DNA of 64,000 nucleotides from Patescibacteria group bacterium (GCA_018814025.1 JAHJAM010000002.1:2798-66797); one strand, 5' to 3'; shown: positions 17,107 to 59,156, counted from the stretch's first letter. Made by a program: numbers and translations. Notes: generated by a model not told the origin, from the letters alone.

Positions 17107-17234
17107 GATCTTACTCCTTCTACGGAGGGTGTTCGCTGGTTTCTAGGCCTTGAACACCGGTTAATCGAATGGGCAGAACATCTACCCAAAGGACACGTTA
17201 AGTTAGCCAGTTTTGTAGGATTTGTCAAGGAGAG

Positions 17235-17262
17235 GGTAGGTAGGGAAATAGTAGGTAGGGTA
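17235..17262. repeat. dispersed motif GGTAGGTAGGGAAATAGTAGGTAGGGTAA
   Basis: One copy of the GTAGGTAGGG repeat family; other copies are listed in the findings. Confidence 0.7.
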
Positions 17263-17329
17263 AAAGGGAGTTATCCACAGATAAAAATATTTTCTTGATT
17301 TTAAAGGGAAAAATTAGTGGCTTAAAGTG

Positions 17330-18934: not shown

Positions 18935-18978
18935 GGGTCAGGCCAAATATCCTTAAATGGATCTCTGCATCAGGAAGG

Positions 18979-19000
18979 GTAGAAAGTAGAAAGTAGAAAG
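18979..19000. repeat. TAGAAAG x3 tandem 7-mer array
   Basis: gtagaaagtagaaagtagaaag. A related array overlaps the uvrB stop at 6231-6275. Confidence 0.7.
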
Positions 19001-19149
19001 TTTACTAGCTTTATACTCCACCTATTGCAGAGGTCCCCACTACTCAAAAACAAAAATACTACGGCCTGATACGCAGGCCCGTGACGGCCAAAATAGCCGC
19101 ACGGGCCATGCCCTTATAACGGGGTGATTGGCAAAACAAAAACCAAATT

Positions 19150-24831: not shown

Positions 24832-27383
24832 TGATTTTTCAGTTCGGATTGGAAACATTCGATCAAACGAATTTCACCGCGACCGGAACGGGCGCGGATT
24901 GGGGTTTTCTAATTCCAATTTTATGGTTAGTCGGAATTTTGGCCGCCGCGGCCATGGTGATTTATTTGGCGTTATATTTTATCCGCCACCGCGCGCAGGT
25001 TCGGTCCGCAACTTTTGACTTAGTCACGCTGTTAATCACGCTGCCGAAATTTCGCCGCGAAGAAGAGTCTGAGCGAGGCGGTTCAAAAGAAGACGTGCAA
25101 GAAACGATTGCGGCCGCGGAAACTTTCTTTTCGGCCGTGGCCGGCTTGAAAGCGGAAAAAGGTTTTATGAAGTGGCTGCTGGGCAAGAATGATCAGTTTT
25201 CATTCGAAATCGTGATGCATAAGAATCTGATTAAGTTTTACGCGGCCGTGCCCAGGCATTTACAGGATTTCTTTCAACAACAGCTGTCCGCGGCTTATCC
25301 GGACGCGTTCATCGAAGAGGTTGAGGATTACAATATTTTTTCTCCGACCGGGGTGATTTTGGGCAGCTATTTAACGCTCAAGCGGGAAAATGGCTTTCCC
25401 ATTAAAACTTATCGCCAGCTGGATAAAGATCCGCTGAATGCGCTGACCAATGTCTTATCAAAATTGCCCGCGGATGAAGGCGCGGTTTTTCAATACGTGG
25501 TGCGCTCGGCGCCGGGCGCTTGGCGCAAACGCGGCGTAAAAATCGCTCAAGACATGCAACAAGGCATGAGTTTGGAAGAAGCGATCAGCGGTAAAAAGAA
25601 ATCTTCGGTCAAAGAATTGACCGGTTTATCAGCCGAGGATAAAAAACCGGAAAAAGAACACCGCTTATCGCCGCAAGAAGAAGAAACCGTCAAAGGCCTG
25701 GAAGAGAAAGCCAGCAAGGGCGGCATGGAAGTTTGCGTGCGCTTGATGGTTTCGGGTGCGAACGCGGGCACGGCCCAGACCACGCTGGCTAATATGATCA
25801 ATGCTTTTTCCCAATACAATATCTATCAATACGGCAACTCTTTCGTGAAATCCGTGCCCAAATCAAAAAATAAAATCACGCAGCGTTTTATTTACCGGGC
25901 TTTCAACGAGCACATGGTTTGCGTTTTGAATACCGAGGAAATGGCCAGTTTGTGGCATTTGCCCACGCCTTGGACCGAAACGCCGAATATCAAGTGGCTG
26001 GGCGCTCGCCGCGGGGCCGTGCCATCGGGCGTGCCCAAGAGCCGGGCCGAGGAAGGCCAACTGGAATTGGGCTTTAATGTTTATCGGGGCATTAAGACGC
26101 CGGTTTGGATGAAAGGGCCGGATCGCTCGCGCCACATGTACATCATTGGCAAATCCGGATCCGGCAAATCAGAAACCATTGCCAAGTATGCGATTCAAGA
26201 CATTCAAAACGGACACGGCGTGGCCGTGGTGGAACCGCACGGCGATTTGGTGGAGCGGATTTTAGCCAATATCCCCAAAGAGCGGGTGGATGACGTGATT
26301 TATTTCTGTCCGTCTGATTTGGAGCGGCCCATGGGCTTGAATATGCTGGAGGCCAAGGATGAAAGCATGAAAGACATGGCCGTGCAGGAAATGATTTCAA
26401 TTTTTTACAAATTGTTCCCGCCGGAAATGATCGGACCGCAATTTGAGCACACGATGCGCAATATGATGCTGACCTTGATGGCTGATCAAGAAAATCCGGG
26501 GACTTTAGCGGAAATTCCGCGGATTATTACGGACGCGGATTTTCAACAGGAATGGGTGGCGAAAGTGAAAGACCCGGTGGTTCGGGCTTATTGGGAAAAA
26601 GAAGTCGCCAACACCAGCGACTTCCACAAGTCAGAGATGTTCGGATATTTGACCTCAAAAGTCGGCCGGTTCGTGGAAAACGAAATGATGCGCAACATCA
26701 TCGGCCAGTCGCATTCCAGTTTTGACTTCAGGGAAGTCATGGATAAGAAAAAGATTTTGCTGGTCAATCTTTCCAAAGGCAAGACCGGGGATGTAAATTC
26801 GGAACTGCTGGGCATGATCATTGTTTCCAAACTGCAAATGGCGGCGCTGGGCCGGGCGGACATGCCCGAGAGCGAGCGCAGCGACTTTTATCTTTACATC
26901 GATGAGTTCCAGAACTTCATTACGGATTCCATTGCCACAATTTTGTCCGAAGCGCGCAAGTACCGGTTGAATCTGATCATCGCCCACCAATATATCGGCC
27001 AATTGGTGAAGAACGGGGACACGAAAATTCGCGATGCGGTGTTTGGCAACGTGGGCACCAACTTTGTGGCCCGAATCGGGCCCGAAGACGTGGAAATGCT
27101 CGAGCCCATCTACTCACCGGAGTTTTCCGGATATGATTTGATGAATTCTGATAAGTTTACTTGGTATGTGAAGATGATTGTGGATAACTCTCAAGTTAAG
27201 CCTTTTACCATGAATTTGGCACCTTCGCCGTCGGGAAATCGGGAATTAGCCGAGGCCATTAAGGAACTTTCTCGGTTGAAATATGGACGGGATCGCGCTA
27301 TTGTCGAAGCAGAGATATTAGAGCGTTCGCAATTGGGCACGGCCGGGCGGGGACCCCAGAGGCCGGGCCCGGGAGAGATATAA
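24828..27383 (+). CDS. VirD4/TraG/TraD-family (FtsK/HerA-like, DUF87-type) membrane-anchored ATPase
   Basis: N-terminal TM, Walker A (IIGKSGSGKSETI) and Walker B (FYLYIDEFQNF) motifs; 851 aa. Confidence 0.55.
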   Translation: MMIFQFGLETFDQTNFTATGTGADWGFLIPILWLVGILAAAAMVIYLALYFIRHRAQVRSATFDLVTLLITLPKFRREEESERGGSKEDVQETIAAAETFFSAVAGLKAEKGFMKWLLGKNDQFSFEIVMHKNLIKFYAAVPRHLQDFFQQQLSAAYPDAFIEEVEDYNIFSPTGVILGSYLTLKRENGFPIKTYRQLDKDPLNALTNVLSKLPADEGAVFQYVVRSAPGAWRKRGVKIAQDMQQGMSLEEAISGKKKSSVKELTGLSAEDKKPEKEHRLSPQEEETVKGLEEKASKGGMEVCVRLMVSGANAGTAQTTLANMINAFSQYNIYQYGNSFVKSVPKSKNKITQRFIYRAFNEHMVCVLNTEEMASLWHLPTPWTETPNIKWLGARRGAVPSGVPKSRAEEGQLELGFNVYRGIKTPVWMKGPDRSRHMYIIGKSGSGKSETIAKYAIQDIQNGHGVAVVEPHGDLVERILANIPKERVDDVIYFCPSDLERPMGLNMLEAKDESMKDMAVQEMISIFYKLFPPEMIGPQFEHTMRNMMLTLMADQENPGTLAEIPRIITDADFQQEWVAKVKDPVVRAYWEKEVANTSDFHKSEMFGYLTSKVGRFVENEMMRNIIGQSHSSFDFREVMDKKKILLVNLSKGKTGDVNSELLGMIIVSKLQMAALGRADMPESERSDFYLYIDEFQNFITDSIATILSEARKYRLNLIIAHQYIGQLVKNGDTKIRDAVFGNVGTNFVARIGPEDVEMLEPIYSPEFSGYDLMNSDKFTWYVKMIVDNSQVKPFTMNLAPSPSGNRELAEAIKELSRLKYGRDRAIVEAEILERSQLGTAGRGPQRPGPGEI

Positions 27384-30302: not shown

Positions 30303-30332
30303 AAAACACCTCGCGAAAGCGGGGTGTTTTTG
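30303..30332. terminator. bidirectional hairpin terminator
   Basis: acacctcgc-GAAA-gcggggtgt with A-run and T-run flanks. Confidence 0.5.
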
Positions 30333-30404
30333 GTTCCGGGACAAGGATTCGAACCTTGATTCTCAGGTCCAGAACCTGATGTCCTGCCGTTAGACGATCC
30401 CGGA
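30331..30404 (-). tRNA. tRNA-Gln (anticodon CUG)
   Basis: Cloverleaf with the same acceptor as the first tRNA-Gln, anticodon stem CAGGT/ACCTG, loop TCTGGAC and T-loop TTCGAAT. On the minus strand it is preceded by TTGACA-16/17-TAGTTT and the leader CGCACAT. Confidence 0.85.
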
Positions 30405-44326: not shown

Positions 44327-44698
44327 ATGCAAATAAAAACTCGGACATTTGTTGATCTGGTTGTTTGGCAGCAGGCTCATAAGTTCGTACTTTCTTTGTA
44401 TCAGTTAACAAAAAGTTTTCCTGATACTGAAAGGTACGGACTGGTTACTCAATTGAGGAGAGCGGGTGTATCAGTAACATCTAACATTGCTGAGGGTTAT
44501 ACACGTTTTGGTCGAAAAAATAAGGCTCATTTTTACACGATGTCACAAGCATCATTAACTGAGATTCAAAATCAGTTGATATTATCAAGGGATTTAGGTT
44601 ATATTTCTAGCGAAAATTATGATAGACTTTGGGAACATACGTTAGATATTTATCGAATGTTAAATATATTAATTAGAAGTGTGAAAGTAAATCCCTGA
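44327..44698 (+). CDS. four-helix-bundle protein (23S rRNA intervening-sequence protein family)
   Basis: QLRRAGVSVTSNIAEGY...S..E..NQL is the hallmark of this family. The gene is AT-rich and is flanked by inverted copies of the GTAGGTAGGGT motif (44304-44326 and 44699-44726). Confidence 0.75.
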   Translation: MQIKTRTFVDLVVWQQAHKFVLSLYQLTKSFPDTERYGLVTQLRRAGVSVTSNIAEGYTRFGRKNKAHFYTMSQASLTEIQNQLILSRDLGYISSENYDRLWEHTLDIYRMLNILIRSVKVNP

Positions 44699-44730
44699 TA
44701 CCCTACCTACTTTTGCCCTACCTCCTATTT

Positions 44731-47367: not shown

Positions 47368-48126
47368 ATGATTCCATACTTTACGGCCACAACTTTTCAT
47401 CTCGGTCCGATCCCGATTCAGGTTTGGGGAACTTTGGTGGCTCTGGGAATTTTAGCCGGCACTTTTGCTTCGGCTTGGCTGGCTAAGCAACGAAAGCAAG
47501 ACGCGGGCTTGATTTGGGATTTGGCCACTTGGGTGATTCTAGGTGCTTTTGTCATGGCGCGCGTGTTTCATGTGTGGCTTTATAATTTCGATTATTATGC
47601 GGCTGATCCGACCAAGATATTCGTGATTTGGGAAGGCGGCTGGTCGATCATCGGTGGTTTTTTGGGGGCGGTCTTAGCCGGCGCATGGTATTTAAAAAAA
47701 CGCCAAGTGAATTTTGGGGAGTATGCGGACACCACAATTTTTGGTTTGCCTTTAGGCTTGTTCATCGGACGGATCGGATGCTTTTTGATTCATGATCATC
47801 CGGGCAAGATCACGAATTTCTTTTTGGGCGTGCAGTATCCGGATGGAATCATTCGCCACGATCACGGATTATATTTGTCCTTAAGCGGTTTGGGTTTGTT
47901 TGCGGCGTATCTGATTATGTGGAAATTGAAAATTGAAAAAGGATTGTTGCTGCCGGTATTTTTGTTGTGGTATGGGGCAGTCAGATTCGTTTTGGATTTT
48001 TATCGAGCCACGGACGGGTTGATTGTGGATGCCAGATATTGGGGTTTGACTCCGGCTCAGTTCGCGTCTTTGTTTATGATAGTGCTGGGGATAACTTTAT
48101 TAATAAGAAAAAGGAAGCATATTTAA
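47368..48126 (+). CDS. lgt: prolipoprotein diacylglyceryl transferase
   Basis: Typical Lgt N-terminus with HLGPIPIQVWG, the Lgt signature G..I(G)R.G.F.N.E in GLFIGRIGCFLIHDHPG, and 7 TM segments. Confidence 0.9.
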   Translation: MIPYFTATTFHLGPIPIQVWGTLVALGILAGTFASAWLAKQRKQDAGLIWDLATWVILGAFVMARVFHVWLYNFDYYAADPTKIFVIWEGGWSIIGGFLGAVLAGAWYLKKRQVNFGEYADTTIFGLPLGLFIGRIGCFLIHDHPGKITNFFLGVQYPDGIIRHDHGLYLSLSGLGLFAAYLIMWKLKIEKGLLLPVFLLWYGAVRFVLDFYRATDGLIVDARYWGLTPAQFASLFMIVLGITLLIRKRKHI

Positions 48127-48235
48127 TCACTGTCAAGGAATCAAAAATTTTTTATAAAAGCCTCTTAATAAGGGCTTTTTTCATATGCTTGTGGATAACT
48201 TGATAAATAAAGATAAATACGCTATGGTGGAAATA

Positions 48236-48548
48236 GGCAAGGGATTAGGTTGCAGGCCCATATTCCACAGCCAAACCGGCTTAGGGTAGGTCAACCCTAA
48301 GTTGGGTAGAACTGCCGCTGTCCGTTACTAGGAATAAGCGGTGGTGCGATCCGCACAAGCTCCGTGTTCTGGCCACACTCAGTACTGGTTCCTCGGCCAG
48401 CTGCTACCTGAAGCAGTCATCGCCCGGGTTTCCGACCTCTGAAGGGGATTTGGAAACGCGGGAGATAAGAGTGAAGATGTACACGGAGCTGGCGGAGACC
48501 AAATCCAAACAAAAAACACCCGACTGAGGTCGGGCGTTTTTTATTGCA
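48236..48548 (+). ncRNA. candidate structured non-coding RNA of unknown class (~310 nt)
   Basis: This is the largest ORF-free stretch in the window on both strands, and it is GC-rich. A TTGATA-18-TATGGT promoter lies upstream (48200-48229), and the region ends in a strong hairpin plus T-run terminator (48518-48543). It contains multiple internal helices, for example CTTAGGGT-aggtcaa-CCCTAAG, GTGCG-atc-CGCAC and CTGGCC...GGCCAG. The strand assignment is tentative. Confidence 0.35.
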
Positions 48549-48555
48549 TATTTTG

Positions 48556-48957
48556 TCAGCCAAAAATAGTTCCCCAAAATCCTTTTTTGGTTCTGCCTGG
48601 CTTTTCCTCTTTTTTCAGGGGTTGGGATAGGGGATTAACATAAGTTGAGATGTATTGCCCGATTCTGGCCATTTCTTGCTCAACTAGCTGGCCGTCGTAA
48701 TCAGCCGAGTGGGCATGGGCGGATTGGCTGTAAGTGGCTTTTTTTTGGTCCAAGTGCAGATTGAGCTCAATTCCGTCGCCTTTAAGCGCGTAGTAAAGAT
48801 GGAATTGCGGAAATGCCGCATTGGTGAAACGTCGGGTATAGCTGATTTGGCCTTTGAAGCCGGGCTTTTCGCCGTAGCCGGCCCGGCGCAGTAAGTTGCG
48901 GGGATTGTCCGGTAACGGGCCGGGGAGATATTGTTTCATACCTTGCCATGATAGCAT
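48556..48957 (-). CDS. hypothetical protein (ORF-track call truncated at N-terminus)
   Basis: The ORF-track version (to 49083) runs antisense across tRNA-Ser, and its N-terminus 'EGFEPS' is simply the T-arm read backwards. The gene was shortened to the first ATG downstream of the tRNA. Even the shortened gene is a weak call. Confidence 0.3.
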   Translation of the reverse strand: MLSWQGMKQYLPGPLPDNPRNLLRRAGYGEKPGFKGQISYTRRFTNAAFPQFHLYYALKGDGIELNLHLDQKKATYSQSAHAHSADYDGQLVEQEMARIGQYISTYVNPLSQPLKKEEKPGRTKKGFWGTIFG

Positions 48958-48993: not shown

Positions 48994-49082
48994 GGAGAGG
49001 TCGCATAGTTGGTCTAGTGCGCACGCTTGGAAAGCGTGTATACCGCAAGGTATCGAGGGTTCGAATCCCTCCCTCTCCGCCA
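48994..49082 (+). tRNA. tRNA-Ser (anticodon GGA) with long variable arm
   Basis: Acceptor GGAGAGG/CCTCTCC, D-arm GCAT..GTGC, anticodon stem CACGC/GCGTG with loop TTGGAAA, a 16-nt variable arm, T-arm GAGGG-TTCGAAT-CCCTC, discriminator G and encoded CCA. Confidence 0.85.
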
Positions 49083-58870: not shown

Positions 58871-59120
58871 CCGCGAATATGTTATAGTTGAAGCAGCTCC
58901 TCATGACGCTGAATTTGGGCTAAATACTTGCCTAGAGCTTGGAGCCGCGTCGACCGTGGTTGGCGCGTGAGAGCTCAGCAGAGAAGCAGATTTCTATCGA
59001 TACTTCGTAAGAACTATCGAGCGAATGAAGTGCCCTTCGGGGTGTTCTCAATTATCATCTAGCCAAGTATCAGCGCGTGTGGAGTTTAAAAAACACCCTC
59101 GGTGACGAGGGTGTTTTTCA
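58871..59120 (+). ncRNA. candidate small RNA (~220-250 nt) between two terminators
   Basis: The region has no ORF on either strand. An upstream TTTGTT-16-TATAGT candidate promoter is present. There is an internal GCCC-TTCG-GGG(T) hairpin, and a terminator aaaaaacaccctcg-gtga-cgagggtgttttt lies at 59088-59120. Confidence 0.25.
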
Positions 59121-59152
59121 TTCACATATGATGCGATCGCATCATATGTGAA
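59121..59152. repeat. 32-bp perfect palindrome TTCACATATGATGCGATCGCATCATATGTGAA
   Basis: Perfect dyad with a GCGATCGC core (HIP1-like octamer), immediately after a terminator. Confidence 0.8.
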
Positions 59153-59156
59153 TGTT

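Follow-up and report, generated by a model that had tools for sequence, protein, structure and literature searches.

A 64,000-nucleotide (nt) stretch of DNA from a Patescibacteria group bacterium (GCA_018814025.1 JAHJAM010000002.1:2798-66797), here called the window and used for all coordinates below, carries downstream of the lgt gene (47368-48126) an element that is probably a functional structured non-coding RNA (ncRNA), lineage-restricted and exapted from trmB, a gene for a transcription regulator of the TrmB family. In the model we propose, the element would be an independent gene for a plus-strand ncRNA of ~300 nt, reaching from a promoter-like site (48200-48228) to a hairpin with a U-run (48517-48542). 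The ancestral trmB sequence would have lost its coding capacity and would then have been selected for base pairing and not for its reading frame. Specifically, a pairing that pre-existed in the trmB mRNA of one clade, helix P7, would have been retained as the core helix, and a 5' half, composed of two hairpins and the 5' strand of helix P1, would have been added without a detectable source. The resulting RNA may be stable, since P1 joins its ends, and may act in trans.

Conservation of a predicted RNA fold

The element was compared with its copy in a single related genome. Judged by its Lgt protein, the host belongs to Candidatus Uhrbacteria (Patescibacteria), and its best Lgt matches in species-level genomes and JGI metagenome contigs reach 60-62% identity. 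Among 5.8 billion proteins one closer Lgt was found (P0002, 75% identity), encoded on the Logan contigs L162 and L163, and L162 carries a full-length copy of the element directly after lgt. Between the two genomes the RNA body is 0.78 identical (5' half 0.69, 3' half 0.85) and the promoter block at 48185-48236 is 0.81 identical, compared with 0.44-0.56 at the four-fold degenerate sites of gatC, gatA, DUF2238 and lgt, and with 0.50 and 17 gaps in the spacer between the lgt stop and the lgt terminator. Beyond the 3' terminator, in a part outside the range over which identity was scored, the pairwise alignment consists of long gaps with few matches. Recent transfer is not indicated as the cause of the likeness, since the flanking non-coding DNA is not equally similar. 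Coding does not account for the constraint either: the window element and the L162 copy have no ORF (open reading frame) in common, and indels of +2, +2 and -1 nt relative to L162 disrupt the frame of the trmB relic as well as any other common frame.

The substitutions that separate the two copies keep the pairing, so that the comparison shows an island of non-coding conservation whose predicted structure is preserved. Folded as RNA, the plus strand reaches -137.8 kcal/mol (z -6.5), and none of 100 dinucleotide shuffles folds as well, in agreement with the well-formed helices noted in an earlier annotation of the window made from its sequence alone (the sequence-only reading). The minus strand reaches -127 kcal/mol (z -5.6), and the L162 copy by itself has a z of -4.7. 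In the consensus fold of window and L162, the RNA body (48236-48509, plus strand, 274 nt) forms 77 pairs in 13 helices closed by P1; 7 pairs show compensatory and 12 one-sided changes, none is broken, and all 154 cells pair. This outcome was reached by 5 of 500 shuffles and, coming from two sequences, carries no significance for any single pair. Sliding the partners by 1-3 columns lowers the pairing to 27-45%, and paired columns are 0.83 identical versus 0.73 for unpaired ones. Because RNAalifold prefers consistent pairs, the minimum free energy (MFE) structure of the window (88 pairs) was additionally projected onto L162, where 63 pairs are unchanged, 11 have one-sided and 7 compensatory changes, and 7 are broken. 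When the same 52 substitutions were placed randomly, 18.9 +/- 2.5 pairs were broken, with a minimum of 9 in 2000 trials. G-U pairs occupy 18 of the 154 paired cells; read from the minus strand, these would turn into A-C mismatches, so that they fit an RNA made from the plus strand. The sequence-only reading had made its candidate depend on conservation in relatives, and structure-preserving changes of this kind were found in one close relative, L162.

The predicted architecture is closed and multi-branched. P1 pairs its 5' strand GGAUUAGGUU (48242-48251) with GACCAAAUCC (48497-48506) and thereby joins both ends of the plus-strand RNA; as it does not vary between the two copies, covariation speaks neither for nor against it. 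Hairpin H3 (48277-48304, plus strand) has the invariant loop UAGGUCAAC and nine pairs, of which three are compensatory and three one-sided, and it includes a string resembling RNase P RNA, CCGGCUUA. It is followed by the H4/H5 hairpin (ACUGCCGCU ... AGCGGUGGU, 48311-48345, plus strand), in which H4 has nine pairs with one compensatory and four one-sided changes. The long-range helix P7, which appears to be inherited from the trmB mRNA, pairs AGCUCCGUGUUC (48358-48369) with GUACACGGAGCU (48479-48490) on the plus strand and forms the stem that bears an inner three-way region (48385-48466, plus strand). According to the consensus fold, this region comprises H9 with the loop CCUC, H10, and P11-P13 with the GAAGGGGA loop region; H9 and H10 contain one compensatory pair each, and P11 is invariant. 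In terms of function, the closed fold with its junctions and invariant loops (UAGGUCAAC, CCUC and GAAGGGGA) suggests, as far as a structural model can, protein binding or tertiary folding over the action of a small RNA (sRNA) that pairs through a seed.

The signals that frame the fold are compatible with a separate transcription unit. At 48204-48555 the element occupies the longest ORF-free stretch of the window (352 nt without an ORF of at least 60 amino acids on either strand; the runner-up, at 58905-59156, has 252 nt), as the sequence-only reading had observed; its description as GC-rich holds relative to the window only (0.555 in the RNA body versus 0.489 overall). On its upstream side lies a weak terminator-like hairpin with a T-run ascribed to lgt and read from the sequence (approximately 48156-48181, plus strand), which marks the element's upstream boundary; L162 has a hairpin and T-run at this site too, with another stem sequence. 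The promoter claimed to follow this terminator is present as a sigma70-like TTGATA-17-TATGGT on the plus strand (48200-48228, predicted start near 48235), its spacer measuring 17 nt and not 18; it is a consensus match only, at 9 of 12 positions. L162 keeps the -10 hexamer TATGGT and the 17-nt spacing and has TTGTAA as -35, which gives 8 of 12 positions and falls under the scanner threshold. Likewise, the 3' end lies where it had been placed, at an intrinsic-terminator hairpin, CCCGAC-UGAG-GUCGGG plus U6 (48517-48542, plus strand; stem 48519-48534, six T at 48537-48542), and L162 has a hairpin of different stem sequence and then seven T at this position. Since an A-tract precedes the hairpin, a T-tract follows it and a convergent gene (48556-48939) stops 10 nt away, the hairpin may serve both strands and is usable on the minus strand too; it is not exclusive to a transcript of the element and may also terminate the minus-strand gene. 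From these sequence signals we infer transcription as a discrete plus-strand RNA of ~300 nt.

The distribution of the element is narrow. The loci examined comprised 80 Lgt loci each from GTDB species genomes and JGI metagenomes, plus further Lgt contigs. No further copy was detected in the two sets of 80 by nhmmer, blastn or R1, a covariance model built from the two RNA copies (325 bits in the window, 337 bits in L162); all matches there were internal to trmB. Of seven additional Lgt contigs, five carry trmB; the remaining ones are short, and their downstream DNA is unrelated. A search of the protein database with spurious ORFs of the L162 copy gave nothing or self-matches and thus no uncalled relatives, exact-pattern scans of IMG/VR with two invariant 20-22-mers gave no match, and a description of this RNA was not found in the literature. 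The element is therefore lineage-specific, as had been proposed, and among the loci and proteins searched it occurs in two genomes, that of the window and L162.

Descent of the 3' half from trmB

The alignments show that the 3' half of the element (48348-48505, plus strand) descends from an internal part of trmB, codons ~78-87 and 114-148, with the intervening codons deleted. In 15 related loci a 29-nt core of the element is found again at 83-93% identity (27 of 29 positions in L019; blastn E 1e-5), in most cases ~300-400 nt past lgt and on the same strand. When these 15 loci are aligned, the core region is coding there and belongs to a protein of ~250 amino acids with the TrmB winged-helix domain PF01978. 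In the window, tblastn with 15 TrmB proteins found no intact trmB and gave one 10-residue match only; by tblastn, 48348-48377 (GATCCGCACAAGCTCCGTGTTCTGGCCACA) translates as DPHKLRVLAT, as against DPHKLRGLAT in trmB codons 78-87. A TrmB profile picks out further relics that follow the order of the gene while changing frame (HRPxxR, 113-121; EGExxxRxIxE, 123-134), and 48483-48503 reads as TELAETK, aligned with TERAESK of codons about 140-146; the relic of codons ~114-148 thus runs through HRP.., EGE.., EDV.. and TELAETK. A profile of the 3' half (nhmmer) in turn matches trmB codons ~114-146 and 81-87 in L164 (E 3e-6), L143 (3e-4) and L089 (9e-4), and beyond its two source copies R1 matches only the inside of the L164 trmB (23.5 bits, model positions 125-281).

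Gene order leads to the same ancestor. A trmB gene follows lgt in 55 of 170 loci (52 of 164 by tblastn, plus L165, L167 and L170) and is usually followed by a convergent gene for a protein of 127 amino acids; the order lgt, trmB, convergent gene is seen in L165, L004/L084 and many more. The window has such a gene on the minus strand at 48556-48939, a conserved right neighbour of trmB in relatives that belongs to no Pfam family. Its product is 47% identical (E 9e-40) to that of L165 3330-3713, which lies directly after trmB, and homologues stand downstream of trmB in many loci. With lgt on its left and this trmB neighbour on its right, the element fills exactly the trmB slot. It shares with the trmB genes that follow lgt the slot, the strand, the colinear codons ~78-87 and 114-148 and a pair of long-range complementary patches, and differs from them in that its 5' half and its promoter- and terminator-like signals are new. 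The relic frame has no start codon ahead of it, the part coding for the helix-turn-helix and the C-terminal two fifths are absent, and no intact winged-helix ORF (PF01978) is present at the element, its frames being broken differently in the two genomes. The 5' half (48236-48347) matched neither strand of trmB, nor any locus, nor the remainder of the window.

The best-kept patches of the relic are complementary to each other, UCCGCAC-AA-GCUCCGUG with CACGGAGC-GUGCGGA, and this complementarity is already found in intact genes. There it comprises 15-20 bp between codons about 78-84 and about 139-146, and its duplex energy lies between -27 and -40 kcal/mol in twelve such trmB genes (L001, L013, L019, L022, L076, L086, L089, L140, L143, L154, L156 and L164) that encode EDPHKLRG(L/I) (EDPQKLRGL in L089) and (T/A)(E/G)(R/H)AE(S/T/A) (GQAELGAES in L019). 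Three more genes of that clade have a weakened duplex (-13 to -19 kcal/mol); the pair is missing from the sister clade, and the remaining trmB genes, mostly with EDPQKLTGL, reach only -4 to -18 kcal/mol. Across 13 genes of the helix clade, 92% of cells are paired, a level matched by 15 of 500 shuffles, and one pair covaries, U-A in six genes and C-G in four (CGU/ACG versus CGC/GCG, with G-U in two sequences). In L019 a 9-codon insertion alters the peptide, and pairing is kept and even extended. Synonymous constraint at the patches showed no marked excess over all 37 trmB genes, and no conserved structure was found between the patches in these genes, so that the closing helix alone is shared with the RNA. 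Given the shuffle result, the single covarying pair and the lack of clear synonymous constraint, selection on the helix within coding genes is suggestive and not strong. A miniature inverted-repeat transposable element or another in-frame insertion as source of the intragenic inverted repeat was ruled out, as helix-bearing and helix-less trmB genes align without gaps.

A more daring proposal, which we regard as rather unlikely, is that the trmB helix marks an RNA domain that was already functional in, or processed from, the trmB mRNA. This domain would have outlived the protein and gained a promoter, a terminator and a 5' domain, and the RNA would now do part of the locus's earlier job. If true, a large structured RNA would have taken over completely from a transcription-factor gene, and dual-function trmB mRNAs would be predicted in relatives.

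Competing explanations

Several points weigh against a functional RNA at this locus. Two genomes are too few for a proper analysis of covariation, and P1, P8 and P11 never vary between them. The single-sequence MFE folds of window and L162 have 43 of ~90 pairs in common, so that parts of the consensus, above all the 5' end and P1, are uncertain. The four-fold degenerate sites are an imperfect neutral proxy. Transcription is read solely from promoter- and terminator-like matches; those to the promoter are modest (9 of 12 positions in the window and, below the scanner threshold, 8 of 12 in L162), and the terminator hairpin would function on both strands. Moreover, no specific partner or target suggests itself. 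Unusual as its history is, the candidate is confined to two uncultured genomes and comes with no functional lead.

The most serious competitor, to which we assign a minor but real chance, is that the element is an inert remnant of a decayed trmB, its fold a chance by-product of coding sequence that is GC-rich and partly palindromic, and its conservation mere kinship. The 3' half is demonstrably a trmB relic, the main helix already exists in intact trmB genes, and two genomes only carry the element. Kinship, however, would not explain why identity is 0.78-0.85 when four-fold sites reach ~0.5 and the adjacent spacer 0.50, nor why 7 pairs are broken where 18.9 +/- 2.5 are expected. Compensatory changes lie in helices 3, 4, 9 and 10, the promoter-like block and the terminator are both retained, and ~60% of trmB was lost, yet this piece is intact in both genomes. 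The sequence-only reading had set decayed spacer or a pseudogene remnant against its own RNA candidate; the 3' half is indeed a trmB remnant, yet with 78-85% identity against ~50% at four-fold sites it does not look like decayed spacer.

A second alternative, which we hold to be improbable, places the function in cis: the element would insulate the convergent lgt and 127-amino-acid genes from each other or act as an extended terminator between them, or it would be a long 3' untranslated region of lgt or a DNA site linked to a DnaA box. Its position between convergent genes, a hairpin able to terminate both strands and a perfect DnaA-box 9-mer conserved here in many relatives would suit such a role. 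A conserved multi-branched structure of ~270 nt, however, goes far beyond the needs of termination, and in both genomes a terminator-like hairpin of lgt already precedes the element. Furthermore, L162 keeps the element despite a different convergent right neighbour with a terminator of its own at 4585-4557, and the G-U pairs indicate a plus-strand RNA and not DNA symmetry.

Very unlikely, in our estimate, is a small protein such as the product of the 16-codon ORF that runs from ATG 48477 to TGA (MYTELAETKSKQKTPD). The corresponding site of L162 also has an ATG, after which SAELAETKSKQK is read; in both genomes ELAETKSKQK follows the ATG. The shared codons are nucleotide-identical, however, without a synonymous difference, as against ~50% difference at four-fold sites elsewhere; this identity fits constraint at the RNA level, since these bases form the 3' strands of P7 and P1. 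In addition, the peptides counted from the ATG differ in length (16 versus 39 codons), no good Shine-Dalgarno sequence stands at the usual distance, and the ATG lies between helices P8 and P7.

Searches for known families support the earlier impression that no known RNA class applies. At gathering score, Rfam 15 finds three tRNAs only in the whole window, none of them in the ORF-free stretch of the element. At E<=10 with lax filters, 48050-48700 gives no match within 48200-48500 and only weak chance matches at the two terminator regions, and the L162 copy gives only terminator-like chance matches far below gathering scores. For transfer-messenger RNA (tmRNA), with its tRNA-like domain and tag frame, ARAGORN reports nothing in the window except the same number of tRNAs, three. 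No Rfam model of 6S or signal recognition particle (SRP) RNA matches, and the multi-branched consensus fold of 13 helices shows neither the one long, irregular hairpin with central bubble of 6S RNA nor the helix 8 motif of SRP RNA. The RNase P models RF00010 and RF00011 and their relatives match neither the window nor L162. The element resembles RNase P RNA in size, in the closing stem that joins its ends and in one 16-nt motif similar to the P4 3' strand; it differs in lacking a covariance-model match and the CR-I/P4 5' strand. Specifically, the conserved P4 helix is built from CR-I (GGAAAGUCCGG) and CR-V (ACAGAA.CCGGCUUA) strands in the correct order; the element has just one string like CR-V, close to its 5' end, for which L162 reads AUAAGCCAAUCUUGGACUA, with local pairing in H3 and compensatory changes. 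The RNase P-like CCGGCUUA was accordingly rejected as coincidental, being the 5' arm of a local hairpin that reads UGGACUAG in L162 with matching changes in the 3' arm. The distrust with which the sequence-only reading had treated the P4 likeness was justified: CCGGCTTA belongs to a local hairpin, as its 5' arm, and is replaced by TGGACTAG in L162, where the partner arm compensates. A very divergent housekeeping RNA (RNase P, 6S, SRP RNA or tmRNA) is the least credible explanation, for although size range and closed architecture fit and the window has in ACAGCCAAACCGGCUUA a likeness to the 3' strand of P4 in RNase P RNA, neither genome gave an Rfam 15 match to such families even with lax filters at E<=10, ARAGORN found no tmRNA, the P4-like motif is one arm of a covarying local hairpin and not conserved in L162, and half of the molecule derives from a protein gene.

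The surrounding locus and the origin of structured RNAs

Immediately upstream of the putative promoter, a perfect DnaA-box 9-mer, identified by sequence match, abuts the -35 hexamer (48190-48198, minus strand; TTATCCACA, or TGTGGATAA on the plus strand). It sits in the block ATGCTTGTGGATAACTTG, which is identical in L162, and is one of three such 9-mers in the window, together with 17271-17279 (plus) and 27179-27187 (minus), where 0.28 would be expected. Among the related loci L001-L164, 80 of 164 have the 9-mer at the 3' end of lgt or between lgt and trmB, almost always as one copy, which lies either within the final Lgt codons (..V W I K/R..) or ~35-45 nt before the trmB start in the spacer. 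In the window its orientation is opposite to that in the lgt-trmB spacer of relatives, and its spacing differs too. This distribution suggests a DNA-level site that is maintained whatever the coding context. As to the other two copies, that at 17271 lies ~55 nt upstream of a TTGACG-17-TATGAT site, and those at 27179 and 48190 share flanks (ATGATTGTGGATAACT versus ATGCTTGTGGATAACT).

The lgt-trmB spacers of relatives contain further motifs. Right after lgt, an inverted-repeat-like CTGTCGGC-N6-8-(T)TGACA(A) is seen in L001, L013, L019, L034, L076, L077, L086, L140, L164 and others, and a further TTGTCA lies near the trmB start codon. Both are possible operator sites of a TrmB-like regulator. The TTGACA-containing repeat is not kept in the element; past the lgt stop, the window (48129-48140) and L162 retain only ACTGTCAAGG. 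Given the DnaA-box-like 9-mer retained by the promoter, some regulatory input of the replaced gene may have been inherited.

To the right, the element lies upstream of tRNA-Ser (48994-49082) by position, as the sequence-only reading had put it, and is separate from it otherwise: the tRNA gene has its own promoter-like site, and the minus-strand gene at 48556-48939 stands between them. Elsewhere in the window, the second-longest ORF-free stretch (58905-59156) has a terminator-like hairpin at ~59093-59118, followed at once by the perfect palindrome CATTCACATATGATGCGATCGCATCATATGTGAATG (59120-59155), and gives no Rfam match at gathering score. Another ORF-free stretch, 18935-19149, carries the short tandem repeat GTAGAAA three times, and a similar GTAGG-rich run, GGTAGGTAGGGAAATAGTAGGTAGGG, lies at 17230-17265, upstream of the DnaA-box copy at 17271. 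Two minus-strand tRNA-Gln genes (2072-2145 and 30331-30404; anticodons UUG and CUG) lie 28 kb apart and hardly differ in their acceptor and T arms. Upstream of gatC, a gene (~44370-44700, corresponding to L161 1-331) matches the 23S_rRNA_IVP and bAvd families, among which are accessory proteins of diversity-generating retroelements. In L169, tandem GACCCCTCA/GACCCCTAA repeats after lgt at the contig edge (1905-1964) are unrelated to the element.

The closest precedent by origin is OxyS. This sRNA arose out of part of a peroxidase mRNA and took over the locus of the peroxidase gene, reportedly with inheritance of the parental gene's regulatory input (Krieger et al. 2022, PMC8825220). Like OxyS, the element is an ncRNA candidate that stands, in conserved gene order, where relatives have the intact ancestral protein gene, and it retains homology to the inside of the mRNA. 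It is, however, ~300 nt long against ~110 nt, closed and multi-branched against three hairpins with pairing seeds, and derived from a transcription regulator (TrmB family) and not from an enzyme; half of it, unlike OxyS, has no detectable origin, and it is known from sequence alone, whereas the expression, regulator and targets of OxyS are established. With raiA, OLE, ROOL, GOLLD and HEARO, large bacterial orphan RNAs in Rfam that were discovered through comparative genomics, the element has in common a long, GC-enriched and ORF-free sequence, promoter- and terminator-like signals, and a complex conserved structure without an assigned function. It matches none of these in sequence or structure, is found in two genomes as against hundreds to thousands, and has a traceable origin in a protein gene.

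To our knowledge, bacteria of the Candidate Phyla Radiation combine tiny genomes with almost no characterised regulatory RNAs; a conserved folded RNA of 300 nt is likely useful, since it is retained in such genomes. If the element is the functional RNA that we favour, the locus presents a readable series, from trmB without the helix, through trmB with an intragenic helix, to a stand-alone RNA built on that helix. The clearest bacterial case so far, OxyS, is a short pairing sRNA, and the series of states seen here would make the origin of large structured RNAs directly testable. It also holds a warning for genome annotation, as 'pseudogene remnant' and 'functional ncRNA' are not mutually exclusive.

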